NCBI GenBank assembly: GCA_963719325.1
Contig: CAVRBW010000024.1
Coordinates: 16,968 to 80,967 of the forward strand
Source of the DNA: an uncultured Actinomycetes bacterium
GTDB taxonomy: Bacteria; Actinomycetota; Thermoleophilia; Gaiellales; Gaiellaceae
Direction: 5' to 3'
Length of the DNA stretch: 64,000 nucleotides
Made by a program: the position numbers and the translations under genes. Shown here piece after piece: positions 7,007 to 55,348 of this stretch. How positions within the stretch are numbered: position 1 is the first letter of the stretch; each line of letters opens with the position of its first letter. The notes below the pieces were generated by a model. The model did no database searches. It had not been told where the DNA came from and saw only the letters and a list, made by a program, of their open reading frames with translations.

Positions 7007-7031
7007 CCGTCTGCACCCCGGCCGTGCGGGA

Positions 7032-29410: not shown

Positions 29411-30111
29411 TCCGGCACGAGCTCGTCCAGCACAGCCGGAAGCGACGTCAGGTCGGCGATCTCCCTGGTCGGCTCGGGTTCGGCGCGCTCGCCGAGGCGG
29501 TTCACCCACACCGACCGCAGCCCGAGCTCGCGGGTGGGCGCGACATCGTGGTACAAGCTCGCCGCCACGTGGACGTGGCGGTCCCGCTCGGCCCCCGTCT
29601 GAAGGAAGAACTCCTGCCAGTGGCGGTGCCGCGGCTTGTAGGAGCCGATTGCAGAAGCGACGATCGTCTCGTCGAACGTCACGCCCAGCCTTGCCTTCGA
29701 CGCTTCGATCAGGTCCGGATCCGTGTTCGAGAGGATCGCGAGCCGCCACCCGCGAGCGCGTGCCTCCTCGAGCGCCGCCGGCACCTCGGGAAACGGGGGC
29801 CAGTCGGGCAGAGAGCGTGCAAGCGCATCCGCCTCGCCGTGCGCGAGCCCGATGTCCTCCTCCGAGGCGAGCTGCTCGAGCGAGCGGCGCAACACCGAGC
29901 GGTAGGTCTGGTGCGGGTCCTCCGCTTGGACCTTCGGCTCGACGTCGTGGTAGCACTGCAGCAGCCGGTCGGCCGCGCCTGCGCCGAACAGCCGGGCCAG
30001 CTCGCCGCCGATCCCCCCGTTCCAGTCGATCAGCGTGCCGTAGCAGTCGAATGTCGCCCACCGCTTGAGCGTGGGGGAACCCAGGGTTCCCCCACGAGCC
30101 CCCACCTTCAC
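29407..30111 (-). CDS. HAD-superfamily hydrolase (haloacid dehalogenase type II-like)
   Basis: Motif I FDCYGTLIDW, ILSNTD, SYKP. The first ~15 codons lie inside palindromic repeat copy a, so the true start (GTG 30111, GTG 30105 or CTG 30083) is uncertain. Confidence 0.7.
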   Translation of the reverse strand: MKVGARGGTLGSPTLKRWATFDCYGTLIDWNGGIGGELARLFGAGAADRLLQCYHDVEPKVQAEDPHQTYRSVLRRSLEQLASEEDIGLAHGEADALARSLPDWPPFPEVPAALEEARARGWRLAILSNTDPDLIEASKARLGVTFDETIVASAIGSYKPRHRHWQEFFLQTGAERDRHVHVAASLYHDVAPTRELGLRSVWVNRLGERAEPEPTREIADLTSLPAVLDELVPE

Positions 30112-30216
30112 CGCGGCGCACCGCCTGCGTCACATGGGCTCCCGCCGGGCAAAGTTCGTCGGCAGCGTCGTCGGGCAAAGCTCGCCGACGCGCCACCACC
30201 GGGGGCCCGGCTCCGC
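30062..30216 (-). repeat. palindrome-terminated dispersed repeat, copy a
   Basis: Palindrome GTGGGGGAACCCAGGGTTCCCCCAC at 30071-30095. On the minus strand it is preceded by GGTGAAGGTGGGGGCTC, TTTGCCCGGCGGGAG and GGAGCCGGGCC blocks shared with copy b. Confidence 0.8.
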
Positions 30217-30243
30217 CCGAGAAAGGTTCGCGCTTCCAAGGGC

Positions 30244-31497
30244 CTACTCCTCGTACCGCTTGAGCACGATCGACGCGTTGTGGCCGCCGAACCCGAAGGA
30301 GTTCGACATTGCCACGCGTACGTCAGCGTGGCGCGCCTCGTTCGGGATGTAGTCCAGGTCGCACTCCGGGTCGGGCACCTCGTAGTTGATCGTCGGCGGC
30401 AACACACCGTCCACGATCGCCATGGTCGAGAAGATCGCTTCGACCGCGCCGGCGGCGCCGAGACAATGCCCGGTCGAGCCCTTCGTCGAGGAGATCGGCG
30501 TCTTCCTGGCGTTCTCCTCCCCGAACGCGAGCTTGATCACACGGGTCTCGCTCGCGTCGCCCAGTGGCGTCGAGGTTCCGTGAGCGTTCACGTAGTCCAC
30601 CTCCGACACGTCGATGCCGGCGTCGGTGAGTGCCATCTGCATCGCCCGCGCCGGGTTCACGCCCGTCGGGTCGGGTTCGGTGATGTGCTGTGCGTCCGAC
30701 GAGACGCCGTAGCCGGCCAGCTCCGCATAGATCTTCGCGCCGCGGGCCTTCGCCCGCTCGAGCTCCTCGAGGACGACCACCGCTCCGGCCTCCCCCATCA
30801 CGAATCCGTCCCGGCCGCTGTCGAACGGCCGGCTCGCGTGCTCGGGATCGTCGTTTCGCCGTGAGAGCGCACGCATAGCGCCGAACCCCGCGATTCCGAC
30901 CTCGGTGACCGGCGCCTCCGTTCCGCCGCAGAACATGACGTCGGCGCGGCCGAGCTTGATCGCGTCCGCACCCTCGCCGATTGCCATGTTCGAGGCGGCG
31001 CAAGCGGTGCACTGAGCGCTGAGCGGCCCCCGCGTCCCCAACTCGATCGAGACCCAGCCGGCGCCGAGGTTGGGGATGATCGCCGGGATCGAGAACGGAT
31101 TGACTCGATCCGGGCCGCGCTCGCGTAGCTGCGTGTGGCAGTCCTGGAACGACTGGAGGCCGCCGATACCCGTCGCGATCGACGCCCCCACGCGATCGGA
31201 CTCCTTGGCGATGTCGATGCCGCAGTCCTGCTCTGCCATTCGCGCGGCGGCAACGACCATCTGGGCGAAACGGTCCATCCGCCGGGCGGTCTTGTACTCG
31301 ATCCAGTCCGTCGGTTCGAAGTCCTTCAGCTCGCAGGCGAAGTTCACGAAGTACGCGCTCGAGTCGAACTGCGTGATCGGCCCTGCACCGGATTTTCCGG
31401 AAACGAGGTTCTGCCACGACGTCTGCACGTCGTTACCGAGCGGTGTAACCGCTCCCATCCCGGTGATGACGACTCTGCGGTGCCCGTCGGCGCTCAT
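30244..31497 (-). CDS. fabF: 3-oxoacyl-ACP synthase II
   Basis: 417 aa starting MSADGHRRVVITGMGAVTPLG. Active-site Cys context QCTACAASN; HGTSTPLGD and GHCLGAAG. The ATG shares one base with the fabG TAA (TAATG). Confidence 0.9.
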   Translation of the reverse strand: MSADGHRRVVITGMGAVTPLGNDVQTSWQNLVSGKSGAGPITQFDSSAYFVNFACELKDFEPTDWIEYKTARRMDRFAQMVVAAARMAEQDCGIDIAKESDRVGASIATGIGGLQSFQDCHTQLRERGPDRVNPFSIPAIIPNLGAGWVSIELGTRGPLSAQCTACAASNMAIGEGADAIKLGRADVMFCGGTEAPVTEVGIAGFGAMRALSRRNDDPEHASRPFDSGRDGFVMGEAGAVVVLEELERAKARGAKIYAELAGYGVSSDAQHITEPDPTGVNPARAMQMALTDAGIDVSEVDYVNAHGTSTPLGDASETRVIKLAFGEENARKTPISSTKGSTGHCLGAAGAVEAIFSTMAIVDGVLPPTINYEVPDPECDLDYIPNEARHADVRVAMSNSFGFGGHNASIVLKRYEE

Positions 31498-32234
31498 TAC
31501 ATTCCCAATCCTCCGTCGACGAGCAGCACCTCGCCGGTCACGAACGAGGCCTCGTCGGAGCAGAGGAAGCGTACCGCTCCCGCCACGTCCTCCGGCGTGC
31601 CGAGACGACCGAGCGGCGTGTTCCCGAGAATCGCCTGCTGGACCTCTCCGGGGAGCACGTCGGTCAGCGCAGTCTGGATGTAGCCCGGCGCGACCGCGTT
31701 CGCACGAACGCCGCGCGAGGCGAGCTCGCGGGCCAACGACTTCGTGAACCCGATGATCCCCGCCTTCGAGGCGGCGTAGTTCGTCTGCCCGGGGTTGCCG
31801 TGGATCCCGACGACGCTGGTCAGATTGACGATCGCGCCGCTCCGGCGACGCATCATCCCGCGGGCTGCGGCTCGGCAGGTGTGGAACACGCCTCCGAGGT
31901 TCGTGTCCAGCACGATCCGCCAATCCTGGTCGGACATCCGTGCGATCAGGCCGTCACGGGTCAAGCCTGCGTTGTTCACGAGGATGTCGAGCTCGCCGGC
32001 CTCATCGACCAGACGAGCGGCCTGCTCGGCATCGGAGACGTCGGCCTGCACCGCGCGACCGCCGATCGCTCCGACGAGTGCCTCTGCTTCCTCGGAACCG
32101 GTTCGGTACCCGATCACCACCTGCGCGCCGGCCCGTGCCAGCTCCGACGCGATCGCACGTCCGATGCCGCGCGAAGCACCGGTGACGAGCGCGAGCTTGC
32201 CCTCCAGCGAGCAGAACTCGCTCGAATCCCTCAC
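31497..32234 (-). CDS. fabG: 3-oxoacyl-ACP reductase
   Basis: SDR motifs LVTGASRGIG, NNAG and YAASKAG. GTG at 32234 gives a standard ~245-aa FabG; the ORF track extends to 32306. Confidence 0.85.
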   Translation of the reverse strand: MRDSSEFCSLEGKLALVTGASRGIGRAIASELARAGAQVVIGYRTGSEEAEALVGAIGGRAVQADVSDAEQAARLVDEAGELDILVNNAGLTRDGLIARMSDQDWRIVLDTNLGGVFHTCRAAARGMMRRRSGAIVNLTSVVGIHGNPGQTNYAASKAGIIGFTKSLARELASRGVRANAVAPGYIQTALTDVLPGEVQQAILGNTPLGRLGTPEDVAGAVRFLCSDEASFVTGEVLLVDGGLGM

Positions 32235-32283
32235 AGGCCAACCCCGCAGCTCACGCTGATTCCCGTCGCCGCGACCGACATGG

Positions 32284-32372
32284 CAGGCGCGGCTCCCAGC
32301 GGTCACTGAGGTGCGAACGGGTCAGAGGATGGGGCACACGGGGGAAACCGACCGTTTCCCCCGTGAAAGCGA
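32284..32372 (+). repeat. palindrome-terminated dispersed repeat, copy e
   Basis: CACGGGGGAAAC-CGACC-GTTTCCCCCGTG at 32337-32365, preceded by GCGAACGGGTCAGAGGATGGGG. That block aligns with the reverse complement of copies c and d. Sits in the fabD-fabG spacer. Confidence 0.75.
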
Positions 32373-32390
32373 GCCGGAGGCGAGCGCCTC

Positions 32391-33314
32391 TCACGTGGGC
32401 GCGATCGCTTCCTCGATCTTCTCGAGCGAGGCGAGGTCGTTGACGGAGATCGCCTTCACGCTGCGGTCGATGCGCTTGACGAGCCCGGAGAGGACGTTGC
32501 CCGGCCCCACCTCGACGAAGGTGCGCACGCCCTCCTTGACGAGCTCGGACGCAGCCTGCGTGAAACGTACGGGCGCCGTCAGCTGGTCGACGAGCAGCGC
32601 GGCCATTCGTTGCGCCTCCTCGAAGCGAGCGGTGACGGTCGACATGAACGCGGCCTCGGGCTCGCTGAACATCACGCGCTCGATCGCCGGCCGAAGCCGT
32701 TCCGCCGCCCGGGCGACGAGCGGCGAATGGAATGCACCCGAGACCTTCAGCTTGACCGTCCGCCGCGCGCCCTCCTCTTCAGCCAGCGCGCAGCACTCGT
32801 CCACGGCCTCGTTCTCGCCCGAGACGACGATCTGGCCGGGGCAGTTGTAGTTTGCCGGCCAGACTCCGATGATTCTCCGGCAGAGCCGCTCGACGACCTC
32901 GTCCTCGAGCCCGAGGATCGCCGCCATCGAGCCGGGTCGCACCCTCGCCGCTTCGGCCATCGCGAGCCCGCGCTCGCGCACGAGCGCGATCGTCTCTTCG
33001 ATGCCGACCGACTCCGCGGCCGCAAGTGCCGCAAACTCGCCGACCGAGTGCCCGATCACGTAGTTGGGCTCGATCCCACGCCGGCGCAGCGCCGCAAGGA
33101 CGGCGAGGCTCGTGGCGACGAGCGCCGGCTGCTGGATCTCCGTCCCGACCATCTCCTCGAGTGGGGTCTCGAAGCAGAGCTTGCGGAGATCCAGACCGCT
33201 CGCCTCGCTTCCCCGGTCGAACACCGCCATCGCCTCGGGCACCGCCTCGGCGATGTCACGGCCCATGCCACGCGCGAGCGCGCCTTGACCCGGGAAGCAG
33301 AACGCAATCTTCAT
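32391..33314 (-). CDS. fabD: malonyl-CoA-ACP transacylase
   Basis: FPGQGA, GHSVGEFAAL, and SGAFHSPL. Start MKIAFCF; its ATG overlaps the fabH stop. Confidence 0.9.
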   Translation of the reverse strand: MKIAFCFPGQGALARGMGRDIAEAVPEAMAVFDRGSEASGLDLRKLCFETPLEEMVGTEIQQPALVATSLAVLAALRRRGIEPNYVIGHSVGEFAALAAAESVGIEETIALVRERGLAMAEAARVRPGSMAAILGLEDEVVERLCRRIIGVWPANYNCPGQIVVSGENEAVDECCALAEEEGARRTVKLKVSGAFHSPLVARAAERLRPAIERVMFSEPEAAFMSTVTARFEEAQRMAALLVDQLTAPVRFTQAASELVKEGVRTFVEVGPGNVLSGLVKRIDRSVKAISVNDLASLEKIEEAIAPT

Positions 33315-34318
33315 CACGCCTCCGTCCATTGCAGTAGCGCCGACCCCCAAGTCAGTCCCGCCCCCATGCCGGTCATCAGCACGGTGTCCCCACGGTGGAT
33401 TCGCCCTTCCGCGACTGCGTCTGCCAGGGCGAGCGGGATCGACGCAGACGAGGTGTTCCCGTATCGGTCGACGTTCATGACGACGCGGTCCTCCGGGATC
33501 CCGAGTTTGGTAACGGCATGATCGATAATCCTGACATTTGCCTGGTGGGGAACGTAGACATCTACGTCGTCCACCGAAAGATCACATTCTGCAAGCACGT
33601 TCTGCGCAGAGCTGACGAGCACGCGCGTCGCGAACCTGAACACCTGCCGGCCGTTCATATGCACATAGTGCTGGCCGGTGGCGACGGTCTCGGCGCTCGC
33701 CGGCATGCGTGACCCGCCTGCCGGGATCAGCAGATCGACTCCGCCCGCCCCGTCGACTCCGAGCTCGAAGCCGAGAAAGCCGCGCTCCTCGACGCGTTCG
33801 ACGACGACTGCCCCCGCTCCGTCGCCGAAGAGCACGCACGTCGAGCGGTCTGTGAAGTCCATCACCTTGGAGAGCACGTCACCCCCGACGACGAGCGACC
33901 GGCTGACCAAGCCGCTCGAGACCATGCTGAACGCCTGAGCCAAGCCGTACATGAACCCCGTGCAGCCGGCCGCGAGGTCGAATGCGCCGGCCTCGCCGGC
34001 GCCTAGCTGGTCGGCGAGAATCGCCGCCGTCGACGGAAACGCCATGTCGGGCGTAACCGTCGCGACGATGATCAGGTCGAGATCGCTCCCCCGCATCCCG
34101 GCCCGCTCGAGCGCTGACCGCGAAGCGGGCAGCGCAAGTTCCGAGAGCGCTTCGCCAGGCGCGGCAAACCGCCGCTCGCGAATCCCGGTGCGCGCTCGAA
34201 TCCACTCGTCCGAGGTGTCGACCATCTGGGCGAGTTCCTCGTTCGTGACTACCCGCTCCGGCACATGGCAACCCAGGCCGGTAATCGACACGGAGACTCC
34301 GTTTGCTCTTCCGATCAT
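33314..34318 (-). CDS. fabH: 3-oxoacyl-ACP synthase III
   Basis: TSDEWIRARTGIRERR, active-site AAGCTGF, HQANVRI, and GNTSSASIP. Confidence 0.9.
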   Translation of the reverse strand: MIGRANGVSVSITGLGCHVPERVVTNEELAQMVDTSDEWIRARTGIRERRFAAPGEALSELALPASRSALERAGMRGSDLDLIIVATVTPDMAFPSTAAILADQLGAGEAGAFDLAAGCTGFMYGLAQAFSMVSSGLVSRSLVVGGDVLSKVMDFTDRSTCVLFGDGAGAVVVERVEERGFLGFELGVDGAGGVDLLIPAGGSRMPASAETVATGQHYVHMNGRQVFRFATRVLVSSAQNVLAECDLSVDDVDVYVPHQANVRIIDHAVTKLGIPEDRVVMNVDRYGNTSSASIPLALADAVAEGRIHRGDTVLMTGMGAGLTWGSALLQWTEA

Positions 34319-35354: not shown

Positions 35355-35375
35355 CCTGCGAGTCTAGTCGGGCGG

Positions 35376-37271: not shown

Positions 37272-37341
37272 CCTCGAGTCCTCGGCAAGTGTGCCCACCC
37301 GCTCAGGCGTCGGCCTGAGCATTGATAGAATCCTTACGACT

Positions 37342-38811: not shown

Positions 38812-38823
38812 GATGGGAGCACC

Positions 38824-39609
38824 GTGACTGCAGCCGTCGTCGTCATCGTCGTCGTCGTCGTCCTCCTCCTCCTGTTCACGCTGGCCGCCGTGAAGGTGGC
38901 GCGGGAGTACGAACGCGGAATCGTCTTTCGTCTCGGGCGGCTCCTCCCGGCACCGAAAGGCCCTGGTCTCTTCCTGCTGATCCCGATCATCGACCGGATG
39001 GTGAAGGTCGATCTGCGGACGATCACGCTGAACATCCCGCCGCAGGAGGTGATCACGAAGGACAACGTCCCCGCGCGGGTGAACGCGGTCGCCTACTTCC
39101 GGATCGTCGACCCGAACGCGGCGATCGTCCAGATCGAGAACTTCATGGTCGCGACCTCGCAGATCGCCCAGACGACGCTTCGTTCGGTGCTCGGGCAGCA
39201 CCTGCTGGACGAGCTGCTCTCGGAGCGCGACAAGATCAACACGATTCTTCAGGGGATCATCGACGAGGCGACCTCGCCCTGGGGGATCAAGGTCTCGATC
39301 GTCGAGGTCAAGGATGTCGAGATCCCGTCCGGGATGCAGCGGGCGATGGCCCGGCAGGCCGAAGCCGAGCGCGAGCGCCGCGCGAAGGTGATCAACGCGG
39401 AGGGCGAGTACCAGGCTTCCGAGCGGTTGAAGGACGCGGCGCTCGTGATCGAGGAGCATCCGATCGCGCTCCAGCTCCGCTACCTGCAGACGCTGCTCGA
39501 GCTCGGTTCCTCGCAGGCGACGACGATCGTCTTCCCGGCGCCGATCGACCTGATCACGCCGTTCCTCGAGCGCGCCACCAAGCCGGGTTCGAACACCGCG
39601 AGCTCGTAG
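38824..39609 (+). CDS. SPFH/band-7 (stomatin-like) protein
   Basis: N-terminal TM, then [13 protein letters not shown]..., [10 protein letters not shown], and a coiled [20 protein letters not shown] segment. Forms the classic NfeD-stomatin gene pair. Confidence 0.85.
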
Positions 39610-39694
39610 CCGCCCTTCGCGGTTCCCCGGATGCGTGGGATGCGTGAAGAGGTGGCAGCTTCTTTCGGCTCTCGGGGCGCTGCGCGCGGCCGCC

Positions 39695-39797
39695 GGAGCC
39701 GGGCCTTGCCCGGCGGGAGGCTTGCTGCGGCAGGAGGATCGCTGCGACGGAGGAGGGGGTTCGTGGGGGAACCATGGGTTCCCCCACGCTGAGGCGC
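39695..39797 (+). repeat. palindrome-terminated dispersed repeat, copy b
   Basis: GTGGGGGAACCATGGGTTCCCCCAC at 39763-39787, preceded by GGAGGAGGGGGTTC, TTGCCCGGCGGGAGG and GGAGCCGGGCC. Confidence 0.8.
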
Positions 39798-40999: not shown

Positions 41000-41032
41000 C
41001 CCTGCTGACTCTTGTGAAGAGCGGAGAAAGCG

Positions 41033-45968
<4,936 letters not shown>

Positions 45969-45992
45969 CTATTGCGGCCACTCGTAAGTCTA

Positions 45993-46454
45993 TCAGAACG
46001 GCCTGTCGGAGCGGCCCGCCGACAGGCTCAGCGCAGCGGCCCGCGCGATGCGCTCGCGGAGCTCGACGTCGGCGATGCTCCCGGTCAGTTCGGCCGCCGT
46101 TTGCAGGGCTTCTGGCGTCGGCTCCGGAACCTCGGCGGGCGCCTCCTCGGCCGAAGCCGGCGCGGCCTCCGGTAGGTGACCGACAGAAAAACGAAGCGCT
46201 TTCGGCGCGTTTGCGCCGAGCGTTTCCCGCAGACGCTCCAGGACGTTCGAGGCGAGCTGCGTCAACTCGAACGCCCACGCGGACGACGAGGTGTTCACGA
46301 GCAGCGTTCCATCACGAGAGATCCGCGCCGGCCACGCGTTCGCGGCGACCATCTCGCCGACTGCCGCGGGCCACGCCGCCACGAGCTCCGGCATACCGCC
46401 TTGCGCCCCGAAGCGCGCAAGCTCGGCTCGAACCGCGCTCGTCAGCCGCTCCAT
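45993..46454 (-). CDS. DUF721 domain protein (DciA-like) in the conserved recF-gyrB slot
   Basis: 153 aa. WPAAVGEMVAANAWPARISRDGTLLVNTSSSAWAFEL fits the DUF721 pattern. Its position between recF and gyrB matches the mycobacterial DciA locus. Confidence 0.65.
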   Translation of the reverse strand: MERLTSAVRAELARFGAQGGMPELVAAWPAAVGEMVAANAWPARISRDGTLLVNTSSSAWAFELTQLASNVLERLRETLGANAPKALRFSVGHLPEAAPASAEEAPAEVPEPTPEALQTAAELTGSIADVELRERIARAAALSLSAGRSDRPF

Positions 46455-47492
46455 CGCACCTCGCCCGGGGACACTCGAAGGAGCTGCGTCGGCTCGCCCG
46501 GCAGCGTATCGGCCGTCGTCGCGGTGATCAGTGTCTGCCCCCGGTCTCGAACCTGCTCGACCAGCGCCCGGCGGCGATCAGGGTCCAGCTCCGAGAGGAC
46601 GTCGTCCAGGAGCAGCAGCGGCCGGTCCCCTCGACGCTCGACCAGCAGCTCGGCCTCTGCCAGCAGCAGGCCCAACACGGCAGTTCGCTGCTCGCCCTGG
46701 GATCCGAACGAACGAAGGTCTCGGTCCCCGGCCGCGATCGAGACGTCGTCGAGGTGAGGCCCGATTCCGGTCGCTCCTCGCTCGAGGTCACGCTCGAGGC
46801 GCGCCTCGAGCGAGTCGGCGGTCGGCGGGACGCCCTCGTAGGCCAAGCATGCGTCGGGGAGGCCGAGAGCGGCAGCAACCCGGTCGAACGGCCGAAGCAA
46901 GAAGCTCGAGGAGCTCGGTCCGAGCCGCGACGAGCTCCGCGCCGAGCGTTGCCGCCTGCTCGGTCCAGGGACGAATGGCGTCGCGGTGACCACGCTTCAG
47001 GGCGGCGTTCCGTTGCGCGAGCACGGCTGCATAGTCCGCCGGCAAGCCGCTGCGCGACGGATACAACCGTCCCAGCGCCCGGTCGAAGTAGGCGCGGCGC
47101 GTGGCGGGGCCGCCTTTCACGATCGCCAGGCGGTCGGGTGTGAACACGAGCGTCGCCGTCTCGCTCCGCAGTTGCTCCGCGGCTCGAAGGCGCGCACCGT
47201 TCAACTCGGCGCGCTTGGCTTCCCCCCTCGACAACCCCACGACAATGCGGGTCTGGGTCTCGTTTCGCGTTCCGGCGACTTGGATTCGCGCTGCGGTCTC
47301 GCCAAAGCGGATGAGCTCCCCGTCCGAGCGCGTTCGTGGCGAGAACCCCTGCGTGGCGACGTGCAACGATTCGAGCAGGTTCGTCTTGCCCGCTCCGTTC
47401 GGACCGACGGCCAGGACGAGACCTGCCTCGAGCGCGAGCTCGAGGCGCGCATAGGAGCGAAAGTCGACGAGGGAGAGCGTGGCGACGATCAG
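46442..47492 (-). pseudogene. recF: recombination protein RecF with no canonical start codon and one +1 frame change
   Basis: My own translation gives an N-terminal part IVATLSLVDFRSYARLELALEAGLVLAVGPNGAGKTNLLESL (Walker A). It has no in-frame ATG/GTG/TTG upstream, only a CTG overlapping the dnaN TGA. The frame changes near 46892-46907 (...TELLELL | LRPFDRVAAALG...). The C-terminal part carries the signature GSQGEQRT and Walker B LLLLDDVLSELD. Confidence 0.75.
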
Positions 47493-48586
47493 CCGGCCAA
47501 GCGGATCGGCATGATCAGGTACCAGAAGTCGTCGCTCGGCCCCTGGATCAAGCCTGGCCGCAAGGGGTCGATCAAGCGCAGCCGGAGCTCGTCTCCCGTC
47601 GCAGACTCGATCCCGTCGCGCAGGAACTCGGCGTTGAACCCGATCTCGAGCGGTTCGCCTTCGAACCGGATCGGCAGCGTCTCCCTCGCTTCACCGACAT
47701 CCTGTGTCTGCGTCCACACCGTCACCTCGCCCTCGGCAAATCGCAGCCTGAGCGGCGAGTTCCGATGGGCCATCACCGACGTGCGGCGGACGACCTCGAG
47801 GAGCTCCTCTCGCGGCAGGGTCACCTCGTGCTTGAACTCCTTGGGCCGGAGCTCGTCGAACTTCGGAAACTGCCCTTCGATACGGCGAGTCGTCAACCAG
47901 GTTCCCTCGACGCCGAAGACAACCTGGTTCTCCTGCACCCCGAGCTCCAACGAACCGCCGGTGCGAACCAGTCGGCGAAGCTCCTCGAGCGCGCGCGCCG
48001 GCACGATCGCCTCGAGCTCGGGGACGGAGCCCTCGACGGGCGTCTCGCGGTACGACAGGCGGTACGAATCGGTCGCCGCCATCACGAGCTTGCCGTCGCC
48101 GAAACGGACGAGGATACCGGTGAGAACGGGCCGTGCTTCGTCCCGAGATACCGCACGGCTAACCGACGCGAGGGTTTCGAGCAAGACGTCTGCACCGATT
48201 GCGGAAAGGGGCGCGACGTCCGTGTCGGGTAGACGCGGAAAGTCCTCGGCGCCGAACGTGTTCAGCCGATATTCGGCTGGGCCGCACTGGACGTGGAGGA
48301 CGTTCTCCTCCTCACGGTGCTCGAGCGTCACCTCGCTCTCGGGCAGCAGGCGCGACAGGTCGACGAGGAGCCGGCCCGGCACGACGACGGCACCTTCGCC
48401 GTCCACCTGCGCGTCGAGCAGTGTTCGAATCGAAAGCTCCATGTCCGTCGCGGCGAGCTCGACGCGACCTCCGCTCGCGCGAACGAGGATCCCGCTCAAG
48501 ATCTGAACGGCGGTGCGCGTGGACACTCCACGACCGACGACAGCGAGCTTCTGCGCGAGCTCCTCTCGTGAGCAAACGATCTTCAA
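47489..48586 (-). CDS. dnaN: DNA polymerase III beta sliding clamp
   Basis: Full-length clamp pattern. TTG at 48586 gives MKIVCSREEL, like the canonical MKF..ER..L N-terminus, and has GGGGCAGGG upstream. The ORF track start is ATG 48619. Confidence 0.9.
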   Translation of the reverse strand: MKIVCSREELAQKLAVVGRGVSTRTAVQILSGILVRASGGRVELAATDMELSIRTLLDAQVDGEGAVVVPGRLLVDLSRLLPESEVTLEHREEENVLHVQCGPAEYRLNTFGAEDFPRLPDTDVAPLSAIGADVLLETLASVSRAVSRDEARPVLTGILVRFGDGKLVMAATDSYRLSYRETPVEGSVPELEAIVPARALEELRRLVRTGGSLELGVQENQVVFGVEGTWLTTRRIEGQFPKFDELRPKEFKHEVTLPREELLEVVRRTSVMAHRNSPLRLRFAEGEVTVWTQTQDVGEARETLPIRFEGEPLEIGFNAEFLRDGIESATGDELRLRLIDPLRPGLIQGPSDDFWYLIMPIRLAG

Positions 48587-48771
48587 CCCTGCCCCTATCA
48601 CGCTTTCTACTTGATTCATTTAATCCTTTCGTCGTAGTACATAGGGGGTGTGGAGCGTGTGGGAGACGGTGTCGAACCGCATGGTTGAGCGACGAACAGG
48701 TGTGGAGGCAGATGGGGACGAATCGGTGTTCTCCACTGCCGAGCCGAAGCGCCGTTGTTCTGTCCACACCG
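48587..48771. other. oriC candidate (dnaA-dnaN intergenic): DnaA-box cluster plus AT-rich unwinding element
   Basis: DnaA-box-like 9-mers: TGTGGAGCG (48649), TGTGGGAGA (48658), TGTGGAGGC (48701), TTCTCCACT (48729), CTGTCCACA (48760). Locally AT-rich tract TTCTACTTGATTCATTTAATCCTTTCGTCGTAGTACATAG (48604-48643) in an otherwise ~70% GC sequence. Confidence 0.7.
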
Positions 48772-50115
48772 TCACCGGACTTGTTTGATCCGAGCAGTCA
48801 GCTCCTGCACAAGGTTGTACACAGAGCGATCCGCCCGGATCATGTTCTGGATCTTCGCATTCGCGTGGAGCACGGTCGTGTGGTCGCGGTCGCCGAAGTA
48901 CTTGCCGATCTTCGGTAGTGAGGAGTCGGTCAACTCGCGAGAGAGGTACATCGCGACTTGTCTCGGGTAGACGATGTTCTGCGATCGCTTGTGACTGCAG
49001 AGCTCGTCGAGGCTCATGCTGAAGCGGTCGCAGACGACCTCCTGGATGCGCTCGATCGTCACCCGGGGAAGGTCTCCTTGTGGGAAGACATCTTTGAGCA
49101 CGTCCTGGGCGAGATCGGCGGTCATCGGCCGGCCGGTAAGGGAAGCAAACGCGACGACACGGGTGAGTGCCCCTTCGAGCTCGCGGATGTTCGTCGAGAT
49201 TCGCCCGGCGATGAACGTCAGAAGTTGCGGGTCGGCGATGTGGATGCCGTCTGTCTTCACCTTCTTGCGCAGGATCGCGATCCGTGTCTCGAGATCCGGT
49301 GGCTGGATGTCGGTGATCAGTCCCCATTCGAATCGCGAGCGCAGGCGCGCCTCGAGCGTGGCGATCTCCTTCGGCGGCCGGTCCGACGAGAGAACGATCT
49401 GGCTGCCCGACTCGTAGAGCGAGTTGAAGGTGTGGAAGAACTCCTCCTGGATGCGCTCCTTGCCCTCGAAGAACTGAACGTCGTCGATCAGCAGCACGTC
49501 GTAGTTGCGGTAGCGCTGCTTGAAGCCCTCGATCCGCTTGTCACGAAGCGAGTTGATGAAGTCGTTCACGAACGCCTCGCTGGTCACGTAGCGGACGGAC
49601 AGGTTGCCGGGATGCTCCATGACGTACTGCGCGATCGCTTGCAGAAGGTGCGTCTTGCCCAAGCCGGTGCTGCCGTAGATGAAGAGCGGGTTGTACGCCT
49701 GCGCCGGCGCCTCGGCGACAGCCAGCGCGGCTGCGTGCGCGAAGCGGTTCGACGACCCGATCACGAACAGGTCGAAGGTGTACTTCGTGTTCAGCCCGGA
49801 GTCGGGGCTGATCCGCTGCGCGGGAAAGCGCGCGGTGTCCGGGGCGGCGTCGAGCTCGGCGATCGTCAGCTGGACCCGTCGTTGCTGGCCGGTTGCGTCG
49901 CGAACTGCGGCTCGAATCAGCTCGAGGAAGTGCCCTTCGATCCACTCGCGCGTGAAGTCGTTGGGCACGGCGAGGACGAAGGAGTCGTCCGAGAGCTCCA
50001 TTCCTTGCACTTCGCCGAACCACGTGCGATAGGTCGATTCGTTGAGGGCTCCCTTGAGCCGCCCGGAAACCTCGGTCCACAGGCTCTCAGCAGTCAGCTC
50101 AATCGGTTGCTCCAC
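48772..50115 (-). CDS. dnaA: chromosomal replication initiator DnaA
   Basis: AAA+ motifs [11 protein letters not shown] and VLLIDDVQF. Domain IV is [23 protein letters not shown]...[19 protein letters not shown] at 50115 gives ~447 aa. Confidence 0.9.
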
Positions 50116-50441
50116 CCGCCCGGCCCCGGCCCCTTCGTCGACGACAGCGAGGGCCGAGCATAGCAACGTGGGACCGGCCGGACAATGGCCTCCTTTCGCC
50201 CGGGCGCAGCTCTCAAAACAGGTGGTTTTGCAGGGGTTTCTCGTACTTCCACACCGCTCTCCACAGGTGTGGAAAGATCGCCTCGAACGGGGTAGGGTCG
50301 CGGCCGAAAAAGGACCCTGCGCACGGTCTTTGCCCGCCGCGGTTGTCCACACAACCCCTGTGGAGAACCGGCTCGGAGAACCTCGTCTATACTGGCTATC
50401 CGCGGCCTGACGGGCCGCCGTTTTCTTGCCCCGGAGACCTC
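50116..50441. promoter_or_regulatory. rpmH-dnaA intergenic region with a second DnaA-box cluster and divergent promoters
   Basis: Boxes ACTTCCACA (50245), CTCTCCACA (50257), TGTGGAAAG (50268), perfect TTGTCCACA (50343) and TGTGGAGAA (50359). A TATACT hexamer at 50388-50393, about 49 nt upstream of the rpmH GTG, is a possible -10. Confidence 0.6.
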
Positions 50442-50576
50442 GTGAAGCGGACGTACCAGCCCAATGTGCGACGGCGGAAGCGCAAGCATGGCTTTCGCGC
50501 CCGGATGTCGACCCGCGCCGGCCGGCTCATCCTGAAACGGCGCCGGGCGAGGGGCCGCAAGCGGCTGTCCGCCTGA
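50442..50576 (+). CDS. rpmH: 50S ribosomal protein L34
   Basis: [48 protein letters not shown] lies 7 nt upstream of GTG 50442. Confidence 0.9.
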
Positions 50577-50605
50577 CGCGGACCGTAGTTCGGGGTCGGG
50601 AAACC

Positions 50606-50950
50606 GTGCATCGCCGCTACCGGCTTTCCCGTTCGCGGGACTTCGACGCGGTCTATCGGCACGGGCGGTCGGTCTCGACCCGCTTCCTCGTCCTCTACTG
50701 GTTCCCTCGCGACGACGACAGCGAGCCACGCCTCGGGATCGCCGTTCCGAAGGGAACCGGCAGCGCCGTCGAGCGGAATCGTGTGAAGCGCCGGCTTCGT
50801 GAGGCCTGGCGCGCACGCCTCCAGGACGTGCCGGCCGGCCGGGACTACGTGCTGATCGCGCGGCCGGCTCTCTCTGATGCGCTCGAGGATCGTGACGCCG
50901 AGTGGCTTGCGGAACGACTCGACGAGCTACTCGGAAAGGCAGCTGCGTGA
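50606..50950 (+). CDS. rnpA: ribonuclease P protein component
   Basis: [15 protein letters not shown]..., [13 protein letters not shown] (RNR motif). GTG start. About 114 aa. Confidence 0.8.
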
Positions 50951-51237
50951 AGTACCTCAGCCTGCTGGTTCGCGGGCTCTTTCCTTCCTTCGGCGTCGCG
51001 GGCGCGCCGGTTTGCAAGTACCACCCGTCCTGCTCCGAGTACTCGTCGCTTGCCTTCCGTGAGTTCGGCTTCGTGCGTGGAACGGCGAAGACCGCTTGGC
51101 GGCTCCTGCGCTGCAATCCCTGGAGCCGCGGCGGAGTCGACTATCCGGGCCACCTCAGGCCTGGAAGCGCCACCGGCGAAGCCGGCGACGCCCGGGTGCA
51201 AAGACCGAGGCGCCGGAGGCGCCTCTTTGGCTCGTGA
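50947..51237 (+). CDS. yidD: membrane protein insertion efficiency factor YidD
   Basis: [48 protein letters not shown] overlaps the rnpA TGA. Confidence 0.8.
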
Positions 51238-52040
51238 TCGTCGCCGGCGTTCTCTCTCCGATCGAGAACGCGCTCGCTTGGCTGCTTCGGCATCTGCACG
51301 ACTCGGCTGGGCTCTCCTGGGGCTGGTCGATCATCGCGCTGACCGTGATCGTCCGTGTGGCACTTGTACCGCTGATGGTCCGTCAGATCCACTCGATGCA
51401 GTCGATGCAGCAGCACATGCCCGAGATGAAGGCGATTCAGCAGAAGTACAAGGGCGACCGGCAGCGCATGAACGAGGAGATGATGAAGTTCTACAAGGAG
51501 AACAGCATCAACCCGGCCTCCTCGTGCCTGCCGATGCTGTTCCAGTTCCCGATCTTCATCGCCCTCTACTTCGTTCTGAAGAACTTCACGAAGCACGTGA
51601 CGGCGACGCCGCACGAGCTCGGCTGGCTGATCGTGCCCAACATCACGCACAAGATCACCTCGCATTGGTCGGGCGCGGTCCTCCTCGTCGTCTACGTCGT
51701 CAGCCAGGTTTCCTCGGGCTACTTCGCGTCCACGTCGGCGCAGAAGAGCCAGCGGATTCTGCTGATGGTGTTGCCCGTCTTCTTCGTCCCGGTGATCACT
51801 CGCTTCCCGGTCGGTCTACTCCTGTACTGGGTGACGACCAACCTGTGGACGGTGGGCCAGGGAGTCATCACGCGGCGAATGGTGCCGAAGCCAGAACCCC
51901 CGCCCAAGCGCTCGTCACGAACGCCGCCGAAGGACGGCGGCGGGCCTGCGCCAGATCAGTCGCAGAAGCCTGCGCCGGCGTCTGCACGGCCGGCACCGCC
52001 GCGGCGCGTGAAGCGAAAGAAGAAGCGGACGCGGCGATGA
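51234..52040 (+). CDS. yidC: YidC/Oxa1-family membrane insertase (short form)
   Basis: [62 protein letters not shown], and a basic C-terminal tail. GTG overlaps the yidD TGA. Confidence 0.85.
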
Positions 52041-52789
52041 GCCGTAGGCTCGACGGAGGCGATTCAGGAGCGGAGGTGCCGGCTTTGCCGGAGCGGGGCA
52101 CGAGCGAGCCGCTTCGCGTCGAGACGACCGGCGAGACGGTCGGCGAGGCGAAATGGCACGCACTGCGCGAGCTGGAGCGCCTCGCGCCCGGGCTCGACAA
52201 GGCGGCGGTGCAATTCGAGGTGATCTCGGAAGGCGAGCGCGGCCTGCTCGGTGTCGGGTACGCGCCCGCGCGTGTGGTCGCGATGCTGGCTGCGGCGGCT
52301 GCTCCTGCCGCTCCGCGTGCGGAGCCTGTTCCCGGAGAGTCGGGCATGGCAGGGGACGTGCGTGAGCTGCTCGAGCGGATCACCGCCGAGCTTGGTGTCC
52401 GCTGCAGGGTGGACGTGGCCGAGGGCGAGGACGCCGTCACCGCCTCGCTCACGGGCGACGACCTCGGGCTTCTGATCGGCCGCCACGGGCAAACGATCGA
52501 CGCGATCCAGTACTTGGCAAACGTGATCGCCTGGCGCGCGTACGGCGATGAGCGCAAGGACGTGGTCGTCGACGCCGCCGGCTACCGCGAGCGTCGCCGT
52601 GTGACCCTCGAGTCGCTGGCCATGACGAGCGCGGAGCGGGCCAGGGCGACGGGCGAGACGGTCGAGCTCGAGCCGATGACGTCGATCGAGCGTCGCATCG
52701 TGCACCTCTGTCTCAAGGAGCTTCCCGGCGTCAGCACCCGCAGCGAAGGCGAGGAGCCGTACCGCCACGTCGTCGTCGAGCCGGACTGA
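52037..52789 (+). CDS. jag: Jag/KhpB-type RNA-binding protein (Jag_N + KH + R3H)
   Basis: Contains TGETVGEAKWHALREL, GLLIGRHGQTIDAIQYL (KH) and MTSIERRIVHLCL (R3H). ATG overlaps the yidC TGA. Confidence 0.8.
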   Translation: MSRRLDGGDSGAEVPALPERGTSEPLRVETTGETVGEAKWHALRELERLAPGLDKAAVQFEVISEGERGLLGVGYAPARVVAMLAAAAAPAAPRAEPVPGESGMAGDVRELLERITAELGVRCRVDVAEGEDAVTASLTGDDLGLLIGRHGQTIDAIQYLANVIAWRAYGDERKDVVVDAAGYRERRRVTLESLAMTSAERARATGETVELEPMTSIERRIVHLCLKELPGVSTRSEGEEPYRHVVVEPD

Positions 52790-52844
52790 TCCACGGCTCG
52801 AGCGGTGGCTCGAGCGGCTACTCCAGACTCCGGGCCTGACCGCA

Positions 52845-53372
52845 ATGCGCGGGCGTGACGAGGCCCACCGCGTTCACGTCGCCGAAAGCCTGGCCGCCGT
52901 GCCGCAGGTCGCGCGATTCCCAGGCGGCATCGTGGACGTGGGCTCGGGCGGGGGTGCGCCGGGGATCCCGCTGGCCGCCGCGCTTCCGGATCGGGAGGTG
53001 GTTCTGCTCGAGGCGAGCCGACGGAAGTGCATGTTCCTCGAGTCGTTCGCCGCCGAGTTCTCCAACGTCCGAGTCGTCTGCCGCCGCGCGGAGGAATGGG
53101 AGGTCAACCAGATGGGGGTGGCGGTTGCGAAGGCGCTGGCGCCTCCGCCCGTAGCTCTCGAGTGGTGTCTGCCGCTCGTCGCCCCGGGCGGAGCGGCGAT
53201 TCTGTTCGTCGGGCCCACGGCGGATGCCGCTGCACTCGCTCGCGTCGCTTCTCAGCTCGGCGGTGGCGAGCCTGAGGAACACCGGGGGCTGGTCGTCGTC
53301 CGAAAGGTCACGGCGACGCCACCGGGCTTCCCTCGACGCGCCGGCGTCGCACGCAAGCGTCCGCTGGCCTGA
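52845..53372 (+). CDS. rsmG: 16S rRNA (guanine527-N7)-methyltransferase RsmG
   Basis: SAM motif VDVGSGGGAPGIPLA; HVAESL corresponds to H..DSL. In-frame homology to RsmG (PRLERWLERLLQTPGLTA) continues upstream of ATG 52845 without a canonical start. Confidence 0.8.
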   Translation: MRGRDEAHRVHVAESLAAVPQVARFPGGIVDVGSGGGAPGIPLAAALPDREVVLLEASRRKCMFLESFAAEFSNVRVVCRRAEEWEVNQMGVAVAKALAPPPVALEWCLPLVAPGGAAILFVGPTADAAALARVASQLGGGEPEEHRGLVVVRKVTATPPGFPRRAGVARKRPLA

Positions 53373-53413
53373 CGAAGGCCCGGGCCGTCCGCCGGCGAAG
53401 AAAGAATGTTCGG

Positions 53414-54169
53414 GTGGCCGGACGGGTCTATGCAGTCGCGAACCAGAAGGGCGGAGTCGGGAAGACCACGACCGCCGTCAATCTCGCCGCGTGCCTGGCC
53501 GAGGCCGGTCAGCGGGCGCTTGTCATCGATCTCGATCCTCAGGCGAACGCCACCTCGGGACTCGGCATGCGCGCGAACGGCACGTCCAGCTACGACCTCC
53601 TGGACGGCGTTCCGCTGGGCGAGCTGGCGAAGCCGACCCGGTTTCAGAACCTCTGGCTGGTGCCCTCGAAGCCCGATCTGGCCGGTGCGGCGGTGGAGCT
53701 CGCGCGACGGGACGACGGCGAGCGCTTCCTCGCCGAATCGCTGGTCGGCGCGGGCGAACAGTACGACTTCGCCTTTCTCGACTGTCCGCCGTCGCTCGGC
53801 CCGCTGACGGTGAATGCGCTCGCGGCCGCCGACCGCGTGCTGGTTCCCGTCCAGGCCGAGTACTACGCGCTCGAGGGGCTGTCGCAGCTGCTTCGGTCGG
53901 TCGACATCATCAAGGCGCGCCTGAACCCGCGGCTTGCGATCGCGGGCGTGCTGCTGACGATGGTCGACGGCCGCACCCGCCTTTCCGCAGATGTCGACGC
54001 CGAGCTCCGCCGGCACCTCGGTGAGCTGGTCTTCGAGACCGTCGTCCCACGGTCGGTTCGCCTCGCGGAGGCGCCGAGCCACGGTCTCCCCGCAATCGCC
54101 TACGACCGCCGTTCGGCGGGCGCCGAGGCCTACTGGAAGGTGGCGATGGAGCTTGTCGAGCGTCCCTGA
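53414..54169 (+). CDS. parA: chromosome partitioning ATPase ParA/Soj
   Basis: Deviant Walker A NQKGGVGKTTT and DLDPQANAT. 251 aa. Confidence 0.9.
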   Translation: MAGRVYAVANQKGGVGKTTTAVNLAACLAEAGQRALVIDLDPQANATSGLGMRANGTSSYDLLDGVPLGELAKPTRFQNLWLVPSKPDLAGAAVELARRDDGERFLAESLVGAGEQYDFAFLDCPPSLGPLTVNALAAADRVLVPVQAEYYALEGLSQLLRSVDIIKARLNPRLAIAGVLLTMVDGRTRLSADVDAELRRHLGELVFETVVPRSVRLAEAPSHGLPAIAYDRRSAGAEAYWKVAMELVERP

Positions 54170-55040
54170 TCGAAACGGCCGCCGCGGCCTCGGCCGCGGC
54201 CTTGAAGTCCTGATGGGCGGTGCGCCGGAGTCGGAGCTCGCGCAGTTGCCGGTGGAGACCATCCATCCGAACCCCCGTCAGCCGCGCAGGCGGCACGACT
54301 CCGAGGCGGCAGTCGGACTGGCCGACTCCGTCCGTGCTCAGGGCGTGATCCAGCCCGTCGTCGTCCGGCCGCGTCGGGCAGGCGGCTGGGAGCTGATCGC
54401 CGGCGAGCGGCGCTGGCGGGCTGCACGTGATGCAGGGCTGGCGAATGTGCCGGCGCTCGTGCGGGAGGCCGACGACCGCGACTCGCTCCTGCTCGCGCTC
54501 GTCGAGAACGTCGCCCGCGAGCAGCTCTCGGCACCGGAAGAGGCGCGCGCGTACGCGCTGCTGATCGACGAGTTCGGCCTGTCGCTGGGTGAAGTGTCCG
54601 AGCGAGTCGGACGGTCGAAGCCGGCAGTGTCGAACCGAATGCGCCTGCTCGAGCTCCCCGACGACGTGCTCGCGATGGTCGAGCGCGGCGAGCTGAGCGA
54701 AGGTCATGCCCGTGCGGTGCTCGCGGTCCCGGATCAGGACGGCCGCCGCCGGCTTGCTCGTGAGATCGTCAAGACCGGGATGTCCGTTCGGGCGGCCGAG
54801 CAGAAGGCACGCTGGGCCGGTGCCAAGCAGAAGCCGCGCCGCGCCGGTGCGCCGGTCGATCCGGCCTTGGCCGCACGCGTTCGGCTCGCCGCCGAGCGGC
54901 TCACCGGCCTCCCCGTCCGGCTGACGCGCGGTCGACTCGAGGTCCTGTTCGCGGACGACTACGAGCTTGCGGAGCTGGCCGAAGCACTCGAGCTTGCATG
55001 GGGGAAACGGTCGGTTTCCCCCATGGACCCCCTTCCCTGA
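54153..55040 (+). CDS. parB: chromosome partitioning protein ParB/Spo0J
   Basis: GLGRGLEVL, ParB box GERRWRAA, and HTH GLSLGEVSERVGRSKPAVSNRMRLL. TTG 54153 chosen. The last ~13 codons (WGKRSVSPMDPLP) are encoded by palindromic repeat copy c. Confidence 0.85.
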   Translation: MSSVPDRNGRRGLGRGLEVLMGGAPESELAQLPVETIHPNPRQPRRRHDSEAAVGLADSVRAQGVIQPVVVRPRRAGGWELIAGERRWRAARDAGLANVPALVREADDRDSLLLALVENVAREQLSAPEEARAYALLIDEFGLSLGEVSERVGRSKPAVSNRMRLLELPDDVLAMVERGELSEGHARAVLAVPDQDGRRRLAREIVKTGMSVRAAEQKARWAGAKQKPRRAGAPVDPALAARVRLAAERLTGLPVRLTRGRLEVLFADDYELAELAEALELAWGKRSVSPMDPLP

Positions 55041-55112
55041 TCCGTTTCGAACCCTTGATCCGTTTGTGTGCTGCGCCTGCACAGGCCGGTCGCGGCGGCA
55101 AATTGCGAACCC
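54997..55112 (-). repeat. palindrome-terminated dispersed repeat, copy c
   Basis: CATGGGGGAAAC-GGTCG-GTTTCCCCCATG at 54997-55025, followed by CCCCCTTCCCTGATCCGTTTCGAA...GTGTGCTGCGCCTGCACAGGCCGGTCGCGGCGGC. Overlaps the parB 3' end. Confidence 0.8.
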
Positions 55113-55142
55113 GCGCCTCGCCGCTACAATCCGCCGTCGCGC

Positions 55143-55216
55143 GGGCGATTAGCTCAGTCGGTTAGAGCGCCGCTCTGATAAGGCGGAGGTCCGTGGTTCG
55201 AATCCACGATCGCCCA
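55143..55216 (+). tRNA. tRNA-Ile (anticodon GAT)
   Basis: Hand-folded cloverleaf. Acceptor GGGCGAT/ATCGCCC, D-arm GCTC..GAGC, anticodon stem CCGCT/GGCGG with loop CTGATAA, T-arm CGTGG-TTCGAAT-CCACG. No encoded CCA. Confidence 0.9.
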
Positions 55217-55250
55217 ACCGCTTCGCTCGCGGCCTACGGCCGCGTCGCTT

Positions 55251-55348
55251 CACGGGGGAAACGGCCGGTTTCCCCCGTGTTCCCCCTTCCCTCCGCGCAC
55301 CCTCGGATCGGCCGTGTGCCGCGCCCGCACAGGTCGGTCGCGGCGACG
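55251..55348 (-). repeat. palindrome-terminated dispersed repeat, copy d
   Basis: CACGGGGGAAAC-GGCCG-GTTTCCCCCGTG at 55251-55279, followed by TTCCCCCTTCCCTCCGCGC...GTGTGCCGCGCCCGCACAGGTCGGTCGCGGCGAC. Colinear with copy c. Confidence 0.8.

Follow-up and report, generated by a model that had tools for sequence, protein, structure and literature searches.

Repetitive extragenic palindromic (REP) sequences of Proteobacteria, together with the bacterial interspersed mosaic elements (BIMEs), composite units at fixed spacing, and the REP doublets forming hairpins (REPINs), inverted pairs of one unit, consist of imperfect palindromes, short and rich in GC, that occur outside genes in tens to hundreds of copies, often just past stop codons. 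One of the roles known for REPs is the stabilisation of mRNA 3′ ends. Mycobacterial interspersed repetitive units (MIRUs; Supply et al. 1997), as far as the summaries in PMC3184786 and PMC12548453 go, are repeats within operons whose open reading frame (ORF) ends overlap the neighbouring genes at a spacing of −4; their insertion is thought to preserve translational coupling, and empty and filled sites as well as short flanking direct repeats are recorded for them. A 64,000-nt stretch of DNA from an uncultured Actinomycetes bacterium of the Gaiellaceae (contig CAVRBW010000024.1, positions 16,968 to 80,967), referred to below as the window, contains five copies of an element that recalls both systems. 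These copies probably represent an undescribed family of small (about 100–160 nt), non-autonomous, modular mobile DNA repeats of Gaiellales and related Thermoleophilia, for which a REP/BIME-like form combined with a MIRU-like placement of one type, type B, in operons is the best-supported description. The family is absent from Rfam and from the searchable literature, in which queries on the palindrome and on REP elements or miniature inverted-repeat transposable elements (MITEs) in Gaiellales or Thermoleophilia returned nothing relevant; otherwise it belongs to a known kind of element, the REP/MIRU-like repeats.

Each copy carries a palindrome of the form GGGGGAAMC-N(1-9)-GKTTCCCCC, and the five palindromes listed in a preliminary description of the same sequence were all recovered at the same coordinates: five matches in the window compare with 0.00 expected from 100 dinucleotide shuffles. 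The 9-mer half-sites GGGGGAAAC and GGGGGAACC are, within the window, confined to these palindromes, and a covariance model, R1, built from the copies of other genomes, returns precisely these five in the window and nothing else (E 2e-20 to 6e-6). The copies, each oriented here by its C-strand, that is, the strand carrying a C-rich tail, lie in both orientations, and all are situated in spacers or overlap gene ends (the 3′ end of parB, the start of a GalT-like gene and the start of a HAD gene), in agreement with that description. The extents first proposed hold broadly, with adjustments for copies 2 (about 32235-32390, now with a 25-nt leader) and 3. In the following lines, hp1 is the hairpin formed by the palindrome, and hp2 and hp2′ are second hairpins.

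30068-30218, + strand: copy 1, type A (model 66.7 bits, E 3.6e-14); palindrome 30073-30093 in hp1 stem-loop 30070-30096; tail AGCCCCCACCTTC 30097-30109; hp2 in two parts, 30136-30154 and 30205-30217, around a nested insert of roughly 50 nt, 30155-30204
32235-32390, − strand: copy 2, type B2 (model 36.5 bits, E 3.7e-7); leader 32366-32390; palindrome 32340-32362 in hp1 stem-loop 32337-32365; tail 32325-32336, G-rich on the + strand; hp2′ 32265-32295; flanks CGTGAG 32390-32395 and 32250-32255, TGTGAG 32230-32235
39690-39791, − strand: copy 3, type A (model 93.1 bits, E 2.4e-20); hp2 39690-39721; G-block GGAGGAGGGGG 39749-39759; palindrome 39765-39785 in hp1 stem-loop 39762-39788
54994-55099, + strand: copy 4, type B2 (model 35.9 bits, E 5.3e-7); palindrome 55000-55022 in hp1 stem-loop 54997-55025; tail 55026-55038; hp2′ 55066-55099
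55248-55350, + strand: copy 5, type B2 (model 31.2 bits, E 6.5e-6); palindrome 55254-55276 in hp1 stem-loop 55251-55279; tail 55280-55293; hp2′ 55314-55347

The arms of hp1 read GGGGGAACC-N3-GGTTCCCCC in type A and GGGGGAAAC-N5-GTTTCCCCC in type B, and with a foot of 3 bp (CGT/ACG, CAC/GTG or CAT/ATG) the stem reaches 12 bp in every copy. A purine block (GGAGGAGGGGG and similar) flanks each palindrome on one side, and its other strand is the tail AG-CCCCC-T-(C/T)C-TT-C. The G-rich blocks and the further shared blocks of the preliminary description are thus real; beyond what it contained, the G-rich block is seen to be AAGGAGG (CCUCCUU on the other strand), and the C-rich motifs of the element read CCUCC or CCUUC on one strand and GGAGG or GAAGG, which are Shine-Dalgarno-like, on the other. 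The shared blocks are the second hairpins: GGAGCCGGGCC and TTTGCCCGGCGGGAG are the two arms of hp2, which in type A has the layout GGCC / UCCC / 7-bp stem / AAA / 7-bp stem / UCC / GGCC, and GTGTGCYGCGCCYGCACAGGYCGGTCGCGGCG is the distinct hp2′ used by the three GGGGGAAAC copies, built as GCCGCGCC..GGTCGGTCGCGGCG in the type B copies of the window. Among 25 type-A copies aligned as a set termed A1, the distance between hp1 and hp2 is constant at 45-50 nt and the sequence between them unconserved. In high-GC loci the hp1 loop is asymmetric on the C-strand, reading CAT (38), CAG (12) or CGT (9) and never ATG; since the same tail stands beside the palindrome and the loop is asymmetric, hairpin and tail constitute one oriented unit. 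The foot varies (CGT, CAC, CGC, CAT) in covariation with its partner, no conserved GT(A/G)G is present at its 5′ side, and the purines that precede it (A, then G or A) are weakly conserved. A transcription-factor operator was considered and rejected, as the covarying stem base and the loop asymmetry indicate a hairpin and not a dimer site.

The hairpins are very stable, and the evidence that both are under structural constraint is strong. Paired cells make up 95.8% of the type-A alignment and 83.4% in shuffles, 53 cells are changed on both sides as against 17.3 in shuffles, compensatory changes occur in 12 of 21 pairs, and the covariation score falls from 0.31 to 0.05 or less when partners are slid by 1–3 columns. 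The tail CCCCCUCCUU and the CUCC motifs in the internal loops of hp2 are conserved in sequence while the adjacent stems covary. Throughout the family, 1753 Watson-Crick pairs stand beside 33 G-U pairs on the C strand, 35 on the G strand and 63 other mismatches; since G-U is equally rare on both strands, the mismatches look like random decay of copied DNA and not like tolerance at the RNA level. An assignment of the functional strand from wobble pairs, hinted at by the hp1 foot in favour of the G strand (15 to 6), was given up on the larger set (35 to 33).

A palindrome scan of 185,579 species genomes yielded at least 119 loci. Among the loci listed, nearly all are metagenome-assembled genomes (MAGs) named Gaiellaceae, Gaiellales, Thermoleophilia, Solirubrobacterales or 'uncultured Actinomycetes', with 66-74% GC; the few matches in low-GC or unrelated genomes are without the tail. 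The covariance-model search proposed in the preliminary description was run on 720 kb of related loci, designated L with a number below, and found further copies beyond the window, about 112 distinct ones in all, including roughly 15 beyond the exact pattern. The density, minus the seeded copy of each locus, is about one per 20 kb, the window having one per 13 kb. Tandem copies were seen in L109, L067 and L097, and nested copies also exist. The 50-nt insert within hp2 of copy 1 is a nested insertion with a hairpin of its own (GTCGGCGAGCTTTGCCCGAC...). An hp2 without hp1 is located a few bases past a stop codon at L094:6179-6230, after a greA-like gene, and at L114:6167-6198, from which it follows that the hairpin modules can exist independently. 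In the Chloroflexaceae MAG H28_384 (L033, L056, L071, L111), another repeat family, often clustered, carries a nearly identical hairpin, GGGGGAACC-AGG-TTCCCCC, followed by ATACCCCCGCCCGC; convergence or a horizontal spread of the hairpin module could account for this likeness.

That the elements insert is evident from the orthologous sites of relatives, whose loci were obtained by a metagenome search with FabF (70-86% identical; an exact-protein look-up of FabF gave no match on record). Copy 1 lies between the fabF stop codon (30244-30246, − strand) and a HAD-hydrolase gene (− strand), its G-rich strand being co-directional with both, and copy 2 lies between fabD and fabG (− strand). In the FabF-matched relatives, hp1 was found at neither of the two positions. 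The fabF-HAD spacer comprises 25-60 nt in L126, L131 and L121, compared with about 150 nt in the window. The HAD genes of the relatives start with GTG-(C/G)AG-CGG-TGG (M-E/Q-R-W-A-T-F-D-C-Y-G-T-L), the window reads …CCCCC-ACG-CTC-AAG-CGG-TGG at this place, and the HAD ORF of the window has a possible start only inside copy 1; here the element's end has taken the place of the ancestral HAD start. In L122, L016 and L124, an apparent reach of the HAD alignment into the element proved spurious. Of nine relatives compared at the fabD-fabG junction, five have a GTGA overlap there, and in eight the aligned ends lie about 30 nt apart. At this junction, where the genes of most of the nine overlap or nearly abut, about 156 nt extra are present in the window. 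An independent gene call on a Logan contig confirmed the fabG start at 32234, and because an independent assembly (Logan SRR28023309) carries a fabD-fabG spacer that is identical base for base, copy 2 is no artefact of assembly. Copies 1 and 2 are therefore insertions that are absent from the orthologous sites of relatives; as no orthologues of the parB, GalT-like, SPFH and BFN genes occur among the fetched loci, the empty sites concern these two copies. Immediately ahead of the HAD start, the 'empty' fabF-HAD site of L126 (5140-5165) reads CCCAGGTAGGTTCCCCGCGTG, similar to the loop and 3′ arm of hp1; an old copy may have left it as a relic, it may be a native sequence to which the insertion was drawn, or the likeness may be chance.

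With non-orthologous dispersal, empty sites and the absence of any match in Rfam, one half of the preliminary alternative, 'REP/MITE-like or small RNA', is upheld. A discrete structured small RNA is not: the copies stand in both orientations relative to genes, their G-U pairs have no strand bias, and no promoter or terminator signature of a discrete small RNA was found at the elements. In the Rfam search, which had likewise been suggested beforehand, only tRNA-Ile passes the gathering threshold and nothing reaches E ≤ 1 on the element regions; no T-run and no terminator call was obtained in any of the five copies, though hairpins are present.

The family also has a defined position relative to genes. 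In about 50 of 95 type A and B copies, a long ORF on the C-strand ends right beside hp1; the stop lies within −1 to +4 nt of the stem in 22 of the 24 stop-adjacent copies of type A, whereas nine leader-bearing B copies have it exactly 25 nt upstream. Several copies are located directly 3′ of tRNA genes. In about a fifth, which are turned the other way, a start codon follows hp1 at a distance of some 10-25 nt. The elements land at ORF boundaries, most commonly with hp1 0-4 nt past a stop codon or just after a tRNA, and in the other orientation just upstream of, or on, a start codon. In the window, this rewriting of ORF boundaries, which the preliminary description did not contain, has several side effects for the host: a new start of the GalT-like gene, the replaced HAD start and an extension of ParB by 13-14 codons. 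Copy 3 is placed between an SPFH gene (ending at 39609) and the GalT-like gene (+ strand), the first in-frame start of which is the ATG at 39774-39776 in the hp1 loop; as a general in-frame start codon this ATG was rejected, being used by window copy 3 only. An 8-nt repeat, CTCTCGGG, around copy 3 was tried as a target-site duplication and taken as chance, since it would cut conserved GalT codons. The parB ORF passes through hp1 of copy 4 and stops within the element at a TGA (55038-55040), so that copy 4 overlaps the final 13-14 parB codons; it precedes the promoter of tRNA-Ile. The spacer of copy 4 holds the 10-mer TGATCCGTTT, which includes this stop codon, at both 55038-55047 and 55056-55065, a local tandem duplication with an offset of 18 nt. 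Directly after copy 4, outside the repeat, lies the promoter-like sequence:

55103-55130, + strand: TTGCGA-16-TACAAT, 12 nt before tRNA-Ile

The hp1 of copy 5 begins 35 nt past the 3′ end of tRNA-Ile (55143-55216), and a BFN-domain gene follows downstream.

Such positions invite the explanation that the hairpins are a cis-regulatory RNA structure of the host, a clade-specific terminator or 3′-end stabiliser that was spread by selection and not by mobility. In favour of this explanation, which is nevertheless unlikely, most copies have hp1 0-4 nt past a stop codon or directly behind a tRNA 3′ end, the stability of the hairpins is very high, the same tRNA has a copy in three genomes, and stop-adjacent type-A copies are found at convergent gene ends in 11 cases and between tandem genes in 5. 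Yet a U-tract is lacking, no terminator-like call was made for any of the five, about a fifth to a quarter of the copies are reversed and stand beside gene starts, and copy 2 sits inside the fabD-fabG-fabF cluster, where the genes of relatives overlap. Identical stems at unrelated genes require copying; moreover, G-U pairs are not in excess over A-C on the transcribed strand, and copies are present in some relatives and absent from others. In the window the mobile repeats, too, have put strong stem-loops at the 3′ ends of mRNAs and tRNAs, and these may protect transcripts.

A further explanation, and a very unlikely one, takes the CCUCC/CCUCCUU motifs for anti-Shine-Dalgarno mimics, or for ribosome-binding decoys on the opposite strand, that regulate translation in cis or in trans. 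It draws on the conservation of the tail CCCCCUCCUU and the hp2 CUCC loops next to covarying stems, and on the fact that the complement AAGGAGG is a perfect Shine-Dalgarno sequence. However, more than 100 copies per genome (extrapolated) would make a very unspecific regulator, and the block of G-oriented copies is about 45-55 nt from the real start, too far away to serve as its Shine-Dalgarno sequence.

The MIRU-like character of the GGGGGAAAC type, a further point that goes beyond the preliminary description, resides in ORFs that run through the element from one gene to the next (relay ORFs). Copy 2 contains two of them:

32251-32394, − strand: relay ORF of 47 codons; its GTG overlaps the fabD TGA, and it crosses leader, hp1, tail and hp2′
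32231-32254, − strand: relay ORF of 7 codons; its GTG overlaps the TGA of the 47-codon ORF, and its TGA overlaps the fabG GTG (32232-32234)

The fabD gene, the 47-codon ORF, the 7-codon ORF and fabG are thereby joined successively by GTGA overlaps, and CGTGAG stands at both ends of the main element. In a related subfamily, B1, described below, such a chain, from an upstream stop through a 44-49-codon ORF to the start of a long downstream ORF, recurs very regularly (11 of 16 B copies). One relay ORF of this kind, used as a protein query, matched 149 clusters of 44-48 amino acids, all unnamed, and on six contigs, representing four clusters, independent gene calls place 4-nt overlaps on both sides of the relay ORF; the junctions are ftsE/ftsX, ATPase/permease of an ABC transporter (two relay ORFs in one operon), permease/permease and leuB-/ilvB-like. 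In two relay peptides, P0104 and P0107, a type-A hp1 is inserted within another element. L078 and L083 read hp1 in another frame with the ORF and both overlaps kept, and it seems that translation through the element, and not the peptide, is the retained feature. B-type elements would be seen as integrating into the overlapping (A/G)TGA stop/start junctions of translationally coupled genes; the junction sequence then flanks the element on either side, which leaves both genes whole, and a short ORF with a 4-nt overlap with either neighbour may relay ribosomes from gene to gene. The relay ORFs are a matter of sequence architecture, which suggests that they work as coupling.

The subfamily B1, which is not in the window, has the layout leader-hp1-tail-GGGGAACCTCCCGGTTCCCC-tail-small hairpin. 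It carries (A/G)TGA plus the next few bases on both sides; in 10 of 11 copies these amount to a direct repeat of 5-11 bp, and 9 of 11 have at least 6 bp, compared with 18% of control (A/G)TGA pairs at the same spacing. Its most unusual feature, and that of the family, is an inverse copy (T′) of the junction sequence (T), followed immediately by a small GC-rich hairpin that runs up to the downstream start. T′, hairpin and T together form a stem of 12-15 bp that includes the downstream start codon, with TCAT pairing to ATGA and TCAC to GTGA. The complementarity of T′ and T extends over 5-9 nt in 8 of 11 B1 copies and is also present in copies in L201-L206; it is not seen in the window copies. 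Of 120 relay peptides, 90 could be scored for the motif, and in these the identity of the second codon of the relay ORF (S, T or N) is correlated with that of the codon within T′: S goes with A in 42 of 47, and T goes with G or R in 8 of 27, as against 1 of 47 for S. T′ is either a guide that selects matching targets or a product of integration. A more far-reaching proposal, possible but doubtful, is that the internal T′ pairs with the (A/G)TGA junction, plus a few nt, of translationally coupled genes and so selects the site, that integration leaves the junction on either side, that the relay ORF and a hairpin holding the downstream start, to be opened by a ribosome on the relay ORF, rebuild the coupling, and that a HUH/Y1 enzyme acting on single-stranded DNA possibly mobilises the element. 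If this were true, a mobile element would both target coupled gene pairs and rebuild their coupling.

Least probable of all, and hardly to be credited, is the notion that the B type is a multiplied small protein gene of about 45 amino acids (M-S/T-x-ARLRLAF-x-GETMFPPRAPFFLRAWGTSRFPTPL...) with incidental hairpins, for while the 149 clusters called as genes are of uniform length (44-48 amino acids) and the peptide is well conserved, L078 and L083 read hp1 in a different frame (...SRGGNPVSPT...) with ORF and 4-nt overlaps kept, compensatory stem changes at the nucleotide level alter amino acids, the same hp1 occurs at non-coding positions and antisense, and there is no Pfam match.

Each element of the family is modular: hp1 with its GGGGGAA(C/A)C arms comes first, then hp2, hp2′ or additional hairpins, and short conserved C-rich motifs link these modules. 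The hairpins would be the recognition sites of a mobilising enzyme, probably on single-stranded DNA, and a HUH/Y1 protein is the leading, unproven candidate. The preliminary description had noted that no transposase accompanies the copies, and this stands for the window: a Pfam scan of its 40 ORFs has no transposase domain among the top 25 of 77 families listed. Its suggestion to search for a REP-associated tyrosine transposase (RAYT) was followed up in the window and in the fetched loci, all fetched ORFs being compared by phmmer with IS200 and RAYT sequences. One Y1_Tnp (IS200-like) gene, the only one in the fetched ORFs, was found in a related MAG (L046:284-738, E 1.4e-9), and the palindromes flanking it are GGGAC-N-GTCCC, not hp1. 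Palindromes of the form GGGAC-N(1-2)-GTCCC that are unrelated to hp1 also occur in the window (7026-7050, 7136-7160 and 28852-28866; for example GTCCCGGGGACTGTCCCCGGGGCAC); similar ones are sparse in the related loci and also lie directly upstream of the L046 Y1 gene, and together with that gene they could represent a separate REP/RAYT-type system.

Several points weigh against mobile repeats as the explanation. The window Pfam scan and the fetched related loci contain no mobilising gene linked to the elements, and type A has neither terminal inverted repeats nor a clear target duplication (terminal inverted repeats are absent in type B too, its ends being dissimilar). Copies stand at apparently orthologous sites: the same tRNA has one in L029, L092 and L099, and L064 and L089 look orthologous, one with type A and the other with type B. 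These shared-site copies may be old, or some sites may have been hit repeatedly; long-term retention for a host function could also be responsible. The related loci were chosen by an exact hp1 match, which makes arm conservation partly a matter of construction, and their genes were called by a crude ORF method based on the GC content of third codon positions (GC3). Finally, the number of copies per 3-Mb genome, on the order of 100-250, is extrapolated from densities and not counted.

The mobile family compares with the known systems as follows. With REPs, BIMEs and REPINs it has in common the short GC-rich imperfect palindromes, the high copy number and the extragenic position, often just past stop codons; composite units at fixed spacing are shared with BIMEs and covarying stems with REPs. 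In contrast to REPs, there is no conserved GTAG/GTGG head, and no flanking RAYT was found in the window or the fetched loci. Unlike REPINs, the doublets consist of hp1 and an unrelated hp2 in fixed order and spacing and not of inverted pairs of one unit, and B-type copies have flanking direct repeats, which REPINs lack. Like MIRUs, the B type is actinobacterial and intra-operon, with empty and filled sites, flanking direct repeats and an internal ORF that overlaps its neighbours, and some copies are tandemly duplicated. However, no similarity to MIRU292 (PMC7977185) was detected, the one MIRU unit compared scoring no better than shuffles (z ≤ 1.5); the 12-bp GGGGGAAMC hairpin, with the other hairpins, dominates the elements, which are also longer (130-160 nt in type B), type A is mostly found at gene 3′ ends outside operons, the host belongs to the Thermoleophilia and not to Mycobacterium, and B1 carries an inverse target copy that pairs with the downstream start codon. 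Palindrome-associated transposable elements (PATEs) derived from IS200/IS605 insertion sequences (ISs) also have asymmetric ends, each with its own distinct hairpin nearby, and lack terminal inverted repeats; further resemblances to IS200/IS605 elements are T′ at the 5′ foot of the 3′ hairpin, complementary to the flank, and the Y1 gene in at least one related MAG. They differ in that the matching sequence is 5-11 nt long and present on both sides (4-5 nt without duplication in IS200/IS605), that no element-linked TnpA was found, and that hp1 and the 3′ hairpin are unrelated in sequence. MITEs such as Correia/NEMIS, ERIC and RUP are likewise small, non-autonomous, intergenic and co-transcribed with their neighbours, alter gene ends or signals and resemble the B type in target-site-like direct repeats, but the present family has no terminal inverted repeats and no cognate IS.

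The window, with a GC content of 68.5%, covers the chromosomal origin region (dnaA, dnaN, gyrB, gyrA, yidC, parA and parB; 41033-55040), with Pfam matches to DnaA, DnaN, GyrB, GyrA, YidC (60KD_IMP), a ParA-like protein and ParB. Gene strand switches at about 50.5 kb, from the − strand on the left to the + strand on the right, and in four of the five element copies the C-strand is the gene-sense strand of its own replichore. An inverted repeat pair of 44 nt, 86% complementary (51152-51195 and 61063-61106), holds a hairpin of the type GCCGGC-GAA/AAA-GCCGGC, loosely like hp2 and without a covariance-model match. In a − strand ORF at 657-1404, three tandem units of roughly 300-312 nt with 72-78% identity are probably a repeated protein domain.

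In soil, Gaiellales and related Thermoleophilia are abundant. Hardly any have been cultured, and the dynamics of their genomes are essentially unstudied; REP/MIRU-type repeats can now be added to what is known of them. Standard annotation misses these repeats or mis-calls them as hypothetical proteins of about 45 amino acids, as in at least 149 public protein clusters, and as gene boundaries are rewritten by the elements, there are consequences in these genomes for the prediction of genes, the assignment of start codons and operon models. The presence or absence of copies may provide markers for strain typing, as MIRU variable-number tandem repeats (MIRU-VNTR) do in mycobacteria. What has been proposed for MIRUs finds a second, independent example in the relay-ORF architecture, and the family could serve to test how mobile DNA enters coupled operons without breaking them.

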